This document shows positions 1 through 4,144 of a stretch of 64,000 nucleotides of DNA, one piece after another (positions within the stretch are counted from its first letter, which is position 1; each line of letters begins with the position of its first letter). The notes beneath the pieces are model-generated. The model had not been told where the DNA came from and did no database searches. It saw only the letters and a list, made by a program, of their open reading frames with translations. Position numbers and translations under genes: made by a program. Source of the stretch: Escherichia phage ECP2303; the sequence record PP261279.1; one strand, written 5' to 3'.

Positions 1-110
1 TGACACTTTTGCCACTTTTGACACTTTTACCTTTGACACAATGTCACACAATATGCCATAATCTGACACCTTATACACTTTCGACACAATAACGACTGTT
101 ATTATTTCAT
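1..110. repeat. iteron-like cluster of (T)GACAC direct repeats
   Basis: Direct reading: tgacac/gacac recurs about six times in ~100 bp with one inverted copy (gtgtca); non-coding. Confidence 0.5.
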
Positions 111-189
111 GTTTCATTGTTCACGTATAGACTATTCCCGCATAGACTGTTTACGCCTGGATAGTTTACACCTTGACAGTTTACACAAA

Positions 190-440
190 GATGATAAGCC
201 ATGACATTCGTTTGCATGATAACAATTAACAAGTTAATAATATATGACATAATATAAAAGCAGGGCAACTATTAGCAGATCTATAGTTGCCTTGCTTGTT
301 ATGTCATGATTAACTAAATACAAGGCAACTATGATCTGATTAATAGATTGCAGACAAACTATCACGGGGGTGATTGTTACTGCTTTTATATTATGTCGCG
401 ACTCCGTCGCGCCATGCCATTCGTTTGCATAGTTGCCTTA
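190..440. repeat. nested inverted and direct repeats (candidate origin or operator region)
   Basis: catg(a/c)cattcgtttgcat occurs twice (~201 and ~415); inverted arms tatatgacataatataaaagcag / ctgcttttatattatgtcgcg; palindrome aaggcaactat...atagttgcctt; one copy of the GAGACAA-type motif at 351-370. Confidence 0.5.
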
Positions 441-1044
441 TTGTTACAGGTAAAACAATTACATTGTTAACTATTTCTTATCTTTCTCTTAGTCATCTAA
501 TGATTCCAGTCAGTATAGTTATGTGCAGTAAACATTAGACGACTAAAGATTTCTCTGATTATAGTAACCTATCGTGACAATTTAGGACTGTTTACGAAAA
601 ATGTTGACACTTGAGCTGATTTATGTTATGCAGTTTACACGAATAATTATTTTATGCAGGTATTGACTATTCCGTTATTCTGTGGTTGGAATAAATACTT
701 TGCAGGCTATAGAATGATGTGCGTACGTGAATTCTGAGATCTGGCGGCTATAGTTACACCCGATTTTTCACGTAGGACACGCTTTTGTGGTTGTGTAAGT
801 GTATGACTTATAAGGGTTTTTAATTGTTGACAGTATACTGAAGATGTGTATCAGGTTAAATTTTGTGCAATAGTTGCATTACGTGCATTTTTGGAAGGAA
901 AAACGTGTAAAAATGGCCCTGCTACCACACAATGAAAGATTATGCAATAGTTATTTTCCATGTATATTTGTACAGTATGTGGGATTGATGGCTAGTCAAT
1001 TATTCCACTTGCCAGGTAGGGCCGTTTATGGTAGGAGAAGAGCA

Positions 1045-1075
1045 GACAAAAAGAAAGGGGCCTTTAAGCCCCTTG
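1045..1075 (-). terminator. rho-independent terminator closing the leftward early operon
   Basis: Minus-sense hairpin aaggggcttaaaggcccctt followed by tttctttttgtc, immediately 3' of the CDS ending at 1093. Confidence 0.6.
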
Positions 1076-1092
1076 ATAATTCAGTTAAGAAA

Positions 1093-1512
1093 TTATAATG
1101 ATTCGTATATTTCAAAAATCCGATTTGCCAGGTCGTTACGGTAGCGGAATTTTTCCTCACGTTTGATCATAAGATCTTTATAGCCGTACTCTTTAAGCAC
1201 TTCATTAACTTTATGGCGGCATACTTTCATATTATCCTGCGCGTCACCAATAAATCTGTTGCTATGGTGCATGGCTTTAATTTCTTCTTCCAGGACCAGG
1301 GCAACTATGCGGACCGGATCAAGCTGATAGGCGGTAACATCCATGCGGCATTGTAAACGGCTTTTTACGTCTGCCACCGGATATACTGCAACCTCTTCCC
1401 CGTCAACATTGACAATAATTAGTTTACCATCGATTTCGAATCCTTTCGCCGCCGGACCGTGACAAAAAGCGTTATCAAAGCTATATGCCGGATTATTAGA
1501 TTTAATGTTCAT
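1093..1512 (-). CDS. hypothetical protein
   Basis: 139-aa ORF; AAGAGG RBS 7 nt upstream of ATG; last gene before the terminator. Confidence 0.7.
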   Translation of the reverse strand: MNIKSNNPAYSFDNAFCHGPAAKGFEIDGKLIIVNVDGEEVAVYPVADVKSRLQCRMDVTAYQLDPVRIVALVLEEEIKAMHHSNRFIGDAQDNMKVCRHKVNEVLKEYGYKDLMIKREEKFRYRNDLANRIFEIYESL

Positions 1513-2470: not shown

Positions 2471-2782
2471 TTATACGGTCCGATCATTGGCCTTTGTCCA
2501 GGACCTGGCGATCCGTTTCCCGGTCACCTGGAACGGAGGCTGCATTGTGTGTAATGAGTCCAGAGTAAGGGAGGACCGTTTACGGCGTATCTTCAGGATC
2601 GCTAACGTATTGTCCATCTCACGGCCAGGTCCTGGGCGGTATGGTGTGCCTCCAGCGTTAAGGTTGATGATCTCATGTATTGAGATCCGGCGTTGTTTTG
2701 CTTCCGCATCTTTGAAGATAGCCAGCGGAGGCGCTATGCGTTGCCGATACCAATCTAAAACGGTTGGCGTAATAGCGATCAT
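2471..2782 (-). CDS. hypothetical protein
   Basis: 103-aa ORF; weak RBS; start overlaps the next gene's stop; lies downstream of a promoter-like and motif-bearing intergenic region. Confidence 0.4.
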   Translation of the reverse strand: MIAITPTVLDWYRQRIAPPLAIFKDAEAKQRRISIHEIINLNAGGTPYRPGPGREMDNTLAILKIRRKRSSLTLDSLHTMQPPFQVTGKRIARSWTKANDRTV

Positions 2783-3898: not shown

Positions 3899-4144
3899 TT
3901 AGTGTTTCATTCCAACCATCGCGGCACGGATCGCCGTAGTGCTGTACTTGAAGCCGTCCGGGGTCTTATCTTGTCCGGTTAGCTCCAGAAAAAGCATCAT
4001 ATCCCGCGCCGCATCATTACGATTAGCATTGGCGTTAATAAAGCCTTGGGCCAACCGGTACAATGACTCATCGTTATTAATCCAAAGGCTTACATTCCAA
4101 TGAGTTTTGTTTTTGTAACCGTTATAACCTTTATTGCTTTTCAT
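3899..4144 (-). CDS. hypothetical protein
   Basis: ORF-track frame 3899..4225; start moved to the internal ATG (MKSNKG...) preceded by aagaggtaaacacc, the RBS context shared by neighbouring genes. Confidence 0.6.
   Translation of the reverse strand: MKSNKGYNGYKNKTHWNVSLWINNDESLYRLAQGFINANANRNDAARDMMLFLELTGQDKTPDGFKYSTTAIRAAMVGMKH

Follow-up and report, generated by a model that had tools for sequence, protein, structure and literature searches.

Hypervariable repeat arrays and a conserved Y-shaped palindrome just inside the direct terminal repeat of rV5-like coliphages

The closest described arrangement to the locus studied here is the left end of phage T7, whose sequence, checked for this work, holds a direct terminal repeat (DTR) at 1-160, arrays of CCTAAAG units with a 13-bp period at 174-245 and 282-340, and the promoter phiOL at 405, followed by the early promoters. 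To our knowledge, the function of the T7 short-repeat arrays (SRL) is unsettled (Dunn and Studier 1983; Chung and Hinkle 1990). Among rV5-like coliphages, the rV5 genome paper draws the corresponding region as a grey "non-coding" box, in which a bidirectional terminator was expected and not found (PMC3606486). The region is already known as "non-coding" in rV5, and its fine structure appears to be undescribed so far. In LL12, the terminal repeat sits in a non-coding region with convergent transcripts on either side (PMC6658697). Terminal repeats of 459 bp have been given for Gotham (PMC7471380) and of 458 bp for EdH4 and HdK5 (PMC6563267), and headful packaging was inferred with PhageTerm for another vequintavirus (PMC13211470), which is treated here as a minority report.

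Position of the locus at the left genome end

The window, i.e., the whole 64,000-nt stretch of DNA analysed here, corresponds to positions 460-64459 of the linear, 136,863-bp ECP2309 record PP464953.1 (Vequintavirus), its first 1100 bases being 100% identical to positions 460-1559. Bases 1-459 of this record are identical to bases 136405-136863 and thus form a 459-bp DTR at both record ends, so window base 1 is the first base internal to the left DTR. The junctions read CTGCCA/GGCGGACG and AACTTGTC/TGACAC in ECP2309 (the slash marks the DTR boundary). Both are the same in the repeat located with PhageTerm at 104966-105424 of LL12 (PMC6658697), and the records of Gotham, EdH4, HdK5, and YN3 terminate at the same base as the ECP2309 repeat. 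An earlier note, made from the letters of the window, had offered a genome terminus among its candidates for the repeat-dense first 470 bp, and this claim is borne out: to the left of the window lies the 459-bp DTR and then the physical left genome end, as seen from the repeat in the record and from the termini of LL12, Gotham, EdH4, and HdK5. In ECP2309, a vequintavirus (rV5-like coliphage), the unique DNA that follows the left 459-bp DTR begins with window positions 1-470, which form the left part of a gene-free concatemer-junction region of ~2.5 to 3 kb between two convergent operons.

The same note had seen no credible open reading frame (ORF) in this region, which holds for 1-540: the five ORFs of at least 30 aa found there lie in hypervariable arrays, are frameshifted by 1-nt indels (Murica or YP-6), or use a TTG start lost in all relatives. 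The gene-free stretch does not end near base 470, as first described, and reaches base 1092. The operon terminator mentioned in the note does exist, at 1055-1074 on the - strand (Table 1). A + strand CDS annotated in ECP2309 at 913-1098 was rejected as not conserved, relatives showing lost starts, internal stops, and frameshifts. Pfam gave no match for the six nearest left-end proteins or for the last right-end protein, and the PHROGs to which all of them belong have no known function. The PHROG matched by another right-end protein, ~1.4 kb upstream, is that of a transcriptional regulator and not of an initiator.

Approximately 119 other rV5-like records match the first 1100 bases at 90 to 95%. 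BLAST similarity of the region was limited to 119 vequintavirus-like records, 18 of them labelled Campylobacter phage; blastn in its distant mode returned nothing outside Vequintavirus, and the E. coli genomes searched showed no similarity to the region. No functional statement was found in the annotations of the relatives isim and Murica.

Table 1. Features at the left end of the window (positions are those of the window)
Feature	Position	Strand	Remarks
Array A	1-91	+	About nine tandem TGACAY-type units, period 9-10 bp, one unit 15 bp; unit 1 at the first post-DTR base
Sigma-70-like promoter match	33-62	+	TTGACA-18-TGnCATAAT, 11/12, within array A
Array B	115-186	+	CTGTTTAC type; five units, 15-bp period, core (A/C)TnTT(T/C)AC(A/G)
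Conserved block with direct-repeat copy 1 (198-217)	187-219	+	AAAGATGATAAGCCATGACATTCGTTTGCATGA; kept in 17/17 genomes, scattered substitutions
AT-rich spacer and array C	220-244	+	AACAATTRACAAGnT, ~1.5 units here, up to 4 in relatives
Extended -10 promoter-like element	245-253	+	TGaCATAAT; conserved in both clades, TG on + strand only
Y-shaped palindrome, 152 nt	246-397	+	Helices P1, P2, P3
P1	246-263/380-397	+	18 bp
P2	265-294/321-351	+	29 pairs; two GGCAACTAT-N10-ATAGTTGCC-type palindromes 60 bp apart
P3	357-365/370-378	+	GGGG loop
GC-rich hairpin/GTCGC direct repeat	398-410	+	GCGACTCCGTCGC; clade 2 has GTCGC-N8-GTCGC
Direct-repeat copy 2	411-430	+	GCCATGCCATTCGTTTGCAT
Fourth exact GGCAACTAT copy	429-437	-	Sequence scan
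Small palindrome	454-468	+	AACAATtacATTGTT, then T-rich tract
Remaining gene-free DNA	471-1054		More B-type units (587-596, 632-639), TTGACA motifs (604, 827)
Intrinsic terminator of the leftward operon	1055-1074	-	AAGGGGCTTAAAGGCCCCTT, then T-run; annotated terminator in Gotham, EdH4, HdK5, Murica
First gene	1093-1512	-	ORF list

Hypervariable arrays and a conserved structured module

The junction was aligned from 16 to 17 phages, and identities are given relative to ECP2309. Identity is 95 to 97% across the DTR and 96 to 100% in most of the right-hand unique non-coding DNA; a fall from 96% to 33% coincides exactly with the DTR boundary, and identity amounts to 33 to 62% for window positions 1-198 and reaches 97 to 99% for positions 249-448 versus ~80% for the first gene. 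The comparison with relatives, suggested in the earlier note as a check on its proposal, gave a divided answer: conservation is found for 249-448, but not for the arrays within 1-198. The region is thus made of two kinds of sequence, namely, hypervariable arrays and a conserved structured module.

The GACAC iterons first noticed in the sequence are present as five + strand copies within 2-87 (positions 2, 20, 35, 65, and 83), compared to 0.11 expected per 87 bp from the window-wide rate (Poisson P(>=5) = 1.5e-7). The units of array A read TGACACTTT, TGCCACTTT, TGACACTTTTACCTT, TGACACAATG, TCACACAATA, TGCCATAATC, TGACACCTTA, TACACTTTC, and GACACAATA; Tandem Repeats Finder reported two arrays, one of period 9 at 1-39 and one of period 15 at 145-186. 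The AACTTGTC/TGACAY junction, with TGACAY at base +1, occurs in 17/17 genomes. The identity of array A to the relatives is only 33 to 51%, and its strict GACAY matches range from 2 to 7 per genome (TGACAYnnnn unit; 17 genomes). The sigma-70-like promoter match within array A is not conserved, being found only in ECP2309, in YP-6, and partly in YN3.

The direct repeats ATAGACT (127, 142) and AGTTTACA (163, 178) of the earlier note are real and proved to be parts of one array of 15-bp period (~115-186). This array B comprises the units ATTGTTCACG, ACTATTCCCG, ACTGTTTACG, TAGTTTACAC, and CAGTTTACAC. Its core reads ACTnTTYACR in the clade-1 relatives, with 1 to 10 TTYAC core matches per genome, and the core CTGTTT(A/C)C is also found in the divergent clade 2 described below. 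Further inward, positions 218-262 have an A+T content of 82%, compared to 56% for the window, and between 219 and 245, array C and GC-rich hairpin cassettes of 33 to 48 nt come and go among relatives, seven of them carrying a 48-nt cassette of this kind inserted in the spacer at 220-244. The annotators of phage isim had labelled arrays B and C as repeat_region.

From the DTR to the conserved block with GCCATGMCATTCGTTTGCAT, the variable segment measures 107 to 229 bp. Array copy number differs between otherwise near-identical phages, and the arrays could therefore serve as a strain marker. The additional units are DTR-proximal (+33 nt in ECP2309 versus YP-6 and +10 nt in DrSchubert versus EdH4).

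In the conserved module, what had been taken for a duplicated 18-mer is a 20-nt direct repeat, GCCATG(A/C)CATTCGTTTGCAT, at 198-217 and 411-430, the 13-nt core of which has no other occurrence in the 64 kb. This repeat brackets the AT-rich spacer and a 152-nt three-helix palindrome. The nested inverted repeats that had been proposed were found again at 246-263/380-397 (18 nt, 100%), 258-272/283-297, and 283-294/321-332. With fold z-scores of -8 to -10 (246-397), the palindrome is the most stable 160-nt fold of the whole 64 kb, though AT-rich, and it is 97 to 99% identical among 16 phages. The + strand RNA is 2.7 to 15.5 kcal/mol more stable than the - strand RNA in 7/7 elements. The 3' arm of the palindrome reads CUGC and then UUUUAUAUUAU; the U-tract at this 3' side is interrupted, and no -35 element is conserved for the -10 element at 245-253. 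In the Murica record, a terminator is annotated over part of the palindrome.

Four of the six exact copies of GGCAACTAT in the 64 kb fall in 264-437. A role of GGCAACTAT, TGACAYAAT, and ACTGTTTACR as a general promoter motif was rejected, since they are not enriched elsewhere in the 64 kb. A transposon or MITE was likewise rejected, as the 18-bp inverted repeats do not abut the 20-bp direct repeats, the window holds no other copy, and E. coli genomes hold none. The small AACAATtacATTGTT palindrome of the earlier note is also present where expected (454-468): among clade-1 phages, C-G and T-A pairs are found along with a T.G intermediate, and compensated AATAAT/ATTATT arms occur in PDX and L047. 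A search of Rfam with both genome ends (E <= 1) gave no relevant match, and the right-hand non-coding region showed no significant structured RNA (fold z-score of -1.0).

The same layout in a divergent clade

Clade 2 consists of five contigs (L005, L034, L052, L080, and L098) obtained from a flanking-gene search, the loci of which led to three contigs, and from a metagenome pattern scan, which yielded 67 loci, only eight of them related; in IMG/VR, the palindromic-operator pattern matched mostly unrelated hairpins. The junction DNA of these contigs is too diverged for BLAST detection at 1e-10. Despite the different sequences, the layout is the same as in clade 1. A DTR-end-like TTGACAAAAAGAGCG(A/T)AATTTGT is followed directly by a hypervariable array of the unit (T)AGGCATAC, and the B-type units read CTGTTTCC and CAGTTTAC. 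Both copies of the bracketing direct repeat read GCCATGTTATCGTTGCAT, identical in 4/5 contigs and with one mismatch in L098. Since this sequence differs from that of clade 1 in both copies, the comparison indicates that the two copies have changed in concert between the clades.

The clade-2 palindrome has the same P1/P2/P3 topology (z = -10.9). The P1 pairs were counted from each sequence's own fold, because MAFFT failed to align the 5' arm of this helix correctly between the clades; the count gave 10 identical pairs, 7 pairs with both partners altered, and no disrupted pair. The changes in P3 are compensated, and P2 is entirely different in sequence and still a long hairpin; this covariation is drawn from essentially two lineages. 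Moreover, the insertions of GC-rich cassettes within the element all lie in predicted loops, either the apical loop of P2 (L034, L080, and phita32) or the loop of P3 (L034).

At the outer left boundary, the sequence resembles the first array unit, i.e., CTGCCA/DTR/TGACAY in clade 1 and TTAGGCA/DTR/TAGGCATAC in clade 2, and in contig L034, AATTTGTTAGGCATAC is duplicated across the inferred boundary. The array unit may thus co-vary with the sequence outside the other DTR boundary, which is only a lead, as it was noticed post hoc and with clade-2 boundaries inferred by homology.

Possible functions and comparison with known systems

We propose that the locus is a cis-acting subterminal region that would serve terminus processing and encode a structured + strand RNA or terminator, a function inferred from the architecture described above and to which we give about an even chance. 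The arrays would be a phased platform for, or duplicate copies of, a sequence read by the terminus-generating machinery (terminase or a partner), and this reading would accompany the cut at the inner DTR boundary of the concatemer. The palindrome would be transcribed from TGaCATAAT into a Y-shaped + strand RNA of ~125 nt, the closing stem and U-tract of which could make it a bidirectional terminator too. Such a terminator would keep convergent transcription out of the terminal repeat.

A packaging-related role is plausible from the position and from the likeness to T7. Repeated motifs adjoin the cleavage position, unit 1 standing at base +1 in 17/17 genomes. A strict sequence requirement is unlikely, because phages with ~95% identical DTRs differ in the sequence and copy number of their arrays, and the units could be tolerated slippage products. 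The most conserved candidate for a cut-site signal, TTGACAAAGAG...TTGT, is located inside the DTR and not in the arrays.

A more specific version, which we consider doubtful though worth stating, is that the Y element and its 20-bp repeats could be a so far undescribed, vequintavirus-specific structured RNA or hairpin-forming DNA signal coupling host-polymerase transcription to terminus processing or to replication priming at the genome end, and that the arrays could have arisen by tandem duplication, at the boundary, of the sequence around the terminase cut site. If so, the way in which the terminal-repeat boundary is made would be recorded in the arrays.

Among the alternatives, a replication origin (transcription-primed or iteron-type) comes first, although it appears rather unlikely. 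Arrays A and B would then be iterons for an initiator and positions 218-262 the unwinding element, and the orphan + strand promoter would provide a T7-like replisome with a transcript serving as primer or R-loop, as at phiOL and phiOR, the secondary origins on either side of the T7 terminal repeat, or at T4 oriF/oriG. Direct repeats, an AT-rich stretch beside them (218-262), and a palindrome do follow each other in the order of lambda ori and of the iteron origins of the P1, F, and R6K plasmids. The promoter has no gene downstream, phiOL of T7 sits just inside its short-repeat arrays, and rV5-type phages have genes for a Pol A polymerase and for a primase-helicase similar to T7 gp4 (PMC3606486). 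Moreover, all five clade-2 contigs carry 2 to 3 perfect DnaA boxes 280 to 343 bp upstream of the inferred boundary, inside the putative terminal repeat. However, 1-470 of ECP2309 holds no DnaA box (strict or relaxed) and no IHF site, the whole ECP2309 junction containing one relaxed DnaA-box match and one IHF-type match, both ~850 bp to the left of base 1. The array periods of 9 to 10 and 15 bp and the shortness of the units do not resemble 17- to 22-bp iterons, iteron number and sequence vary freely among close relatives, and no initiator gene is adjacent (Pfam and PHROGs of the neighbours). GC skew is uninformative on an origin, since it tracks only the direction of transcription (PMC3606486).

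As the second alternative, the palindrome could act as DNA and not as RNA, as a cruciform, a snap-back hairpin, or nested dyad sites for a protein, in concatemer resolution or terminal-repeat duplication. A related option would be a single-strand promoter of the Frpo/ssoA type. Hairpin-primed synthesis is a proposal for concatemer processing in T7. In both clades, the perfect 18-bp outer inverted repeat extends across the -10 region, which would not be transcribed. The outer half of P1, in which this -10 lies, is nonetheless perfectly complementary to the 3' tail, a better fit to a DNA-level dyad than to an RNA. The element lies 246 bp from the DTR boundary, its flanking 20-bp direct repeats probably changed in concert between clades, and GGCAACTAT-N10-ATAGTTGCC occurs twice, 60 bp apart, like paired operators, in the very segment where most exact copies of GGCAACTAT are gathered. 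Nevertheless, we regard this explanation as unlikely. A duplex protein-binding site would not be expected to fold better on one strand, as the + strand does with its G.U pairs in 7/7 elements, no known step makes the region single-stranded, and P2 is wholly replaced between clades with its hairpin shape retained, which favours structure over a conserved binding sequence.

Finally, that the whole would be functionless, slippage-prone intergenic filler beside a genome end active in recombination is most improbable: the low identity of bases 1-198, the changing length of the segment between DTR and conserved block, and the gain and loss of small GC-rich cassettes agree with it, but 249-448 is far better conserved than the adjacent gene, the three-helix architecture, flanking repeats, and array position persist in a clade undetected by BLAST, stem changes are compensated, and the array core is kept within each clade, every genome starting with it at base +1. 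Filler DNA is unlikely for 246-448 and possible for the arrays.

Both phage therapy and O157 biocontrol make wide use of rV5-like coliphages. Placing the region relative to the physical genome end provides the correct start point for annotation and engineering, and telling the variable part, which looks dispensable, from the structured part, which is under strong constraint, gives targets for a packaging signal, an origin, or a new phage RNA.

Compared to bidirectional intrinsic terminators, the module likewise has a strong hairpin with complementary A-rich and T-rich flanks between convergent units. It differs from them by a 152-nt three-way structure instead of a 5- to 15-bp stem, by its location ~650 bp beyond the operon's own terminator, by the conserved 20-bp repeats that bracket the hairpin, and by carrying its own promoter-like element. 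The ssoA of rolling-circle plasmids and Frpo of the F plasmid are likewise long imperfect palindromes (~150 nt) whose stem contains a -10-like sequence and which depend on the strand; our element has no sequence similarity to them, and no single-stranded stage is known for this region.

As in lambda cosB (R sites), P1 pac (hexamers), and SPP1 (pacL/pacR), short phased repeats adjoin a position of sequence-specific cleavage, the repeats of the present case being candidate recognition sites. Those systems serve cohesive-end or headful packaging, not exact terminal repeats, and the arrays described here vary much more than known terminase sites. A scan of 1-470 found no Chi and no clustered GATC, GATC being depleted to two copies, and unlike in P1 pac, there are no hexamers with Dam sites.

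With the left end of T7, there is no sequence similarity, and the units differ (TGACAY and CTGTTTAC types of 9 to 10 and 15 bp versus CCTAAAG of 13 bp). The arrays start at base +1 here versus ~14 bp in for T7, and T7 genes read away from the end, whereas the vequintavirus genes here read toward it. Unlike T7, vequintaviruses lack an RNA polymerase of their own, and T7 is without the 152-nt Y-shaped palindrome and its bracketing 20-bp repeats. On the right-hand unique side, where a counterpart of the T7 SRR was sought, CCTGAAGAG occurs four times, dispersed over 540 bp and not in tandem. What the two left ends share is the arrangement itself: non-coding DNA just internal to a short, non-permuted DTR, with tandem arrays of short units and then a promoter without a nearby gene of its own.

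Right-end non-coding DNA and the window start

The start of the window, at record base 460, coincides exactly with the terminal repeat's inner boundary, so the terminus is invisible in the window sequence alone and one copy of the repeat may have been trimmed from the source sequence. Outside the window, the unique non-coding DNA at the right end is conserved at 96 to 100% among 10 phages and contains a T12 run, two copies of CCCCTGCCCCGCCGG spaced by 145 bp, and four plus-strand copies of CCTGAAGAG (positions 3932, 4344, 4379, and 4466 of L003, the ECP2309 junction locus), compared to only one in the whole 64-kb window. Some of these CCTGAAGAG copies are preceded by CCACACA, and the motif is also carried by the divergent clade. 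The strong sigma-70-like promoter at this end is followed, at most 25 nt downstream, by a small hairpin and a T-run. Next comes a stretch of ~250 nt rich in purines, for which we found a fold z-score of only -1.0 and no Rfam match.

Features of the ECP2309 termini and of divergent relatives
Feature	Coordinates	Strand	Remarks
Right-end unique non-coding DNA	L003 3581-4542 (ECP2309 record 135443-136404)		Outside window
Sigma-70-like promoter, strong	L003 3708-3780		TTGACA-16-TGnTAAAAT, 11/12 match; directly past last right-end gene
DnaA boxes of L005 (divergent contig)	L005 6843-6885 (as fetched)
Additional core copies of array B (15-bp-period tandem repeats)	Window 586-673		ACTGTTTACG at 587, AGTTTACA at 632, ACTATTCC at 664; second half of gene-free region
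TTGACA motifs	Window 604, 827 (827-832)		Second half of gene-free region
Annotated CDS WXX18241.1, 61 aa	Window 913-1098	+	Overlaps operon terminator
GC-rich cassettes	Window 219/220, 240/241, 298/299 (insertion points, relative to the window); palindrome loops of contigs L034 and L080

A doubtful CDS and doubtful host names

In relatives, the counterparts of the ECP2309 CDS WXX18241.1 lack start codons, contain stops within the frame, and are frameshifted, so this CDS is probably not a gene. Further along, window positions 2481 to 2640 form the fold ranking second in stability among 160-nt folds across the window (-65.7 kcal/mol), in a GC-rich stretch where a 151-aa plus-strand ORF overlaps an annotated 103-aa minus-strand gene. 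Beside these annotations, 18 to 19 GenBank records titled "Campylobacter phage" (MG0656xx) are 93 to 96% identical to E. coli vequintaviruses in the subterminal region, suggesting that hosts were mislabelled or lysates mixed.

DnaA boxes and GC-rich cassettes among relatives

Perfect tandem DnaA boxes (GTTATCCACA), two to three in each, are present in all five divergent metagenomic relatives (L005, L034, L052, L080, and L098), 280 to 343 bp upstream of the inferred boundary of a putative terminal repeat of ~666 to 699 bp; ECP2309-type phages lack such perfect tandem boxes. GC-rich multi-hairpin cassettes, 33 to 48 nt long and belonging to one family (e.g., CACTGGCTATGCCAGGTGACCTTTGGTCACCCCTTCGGGTG), also occur in the subterminal non-coding region, and their presence and site differ from phage to phage. 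By this presence/absence pattern, the cassettes resemble a small module that moves or recombines.
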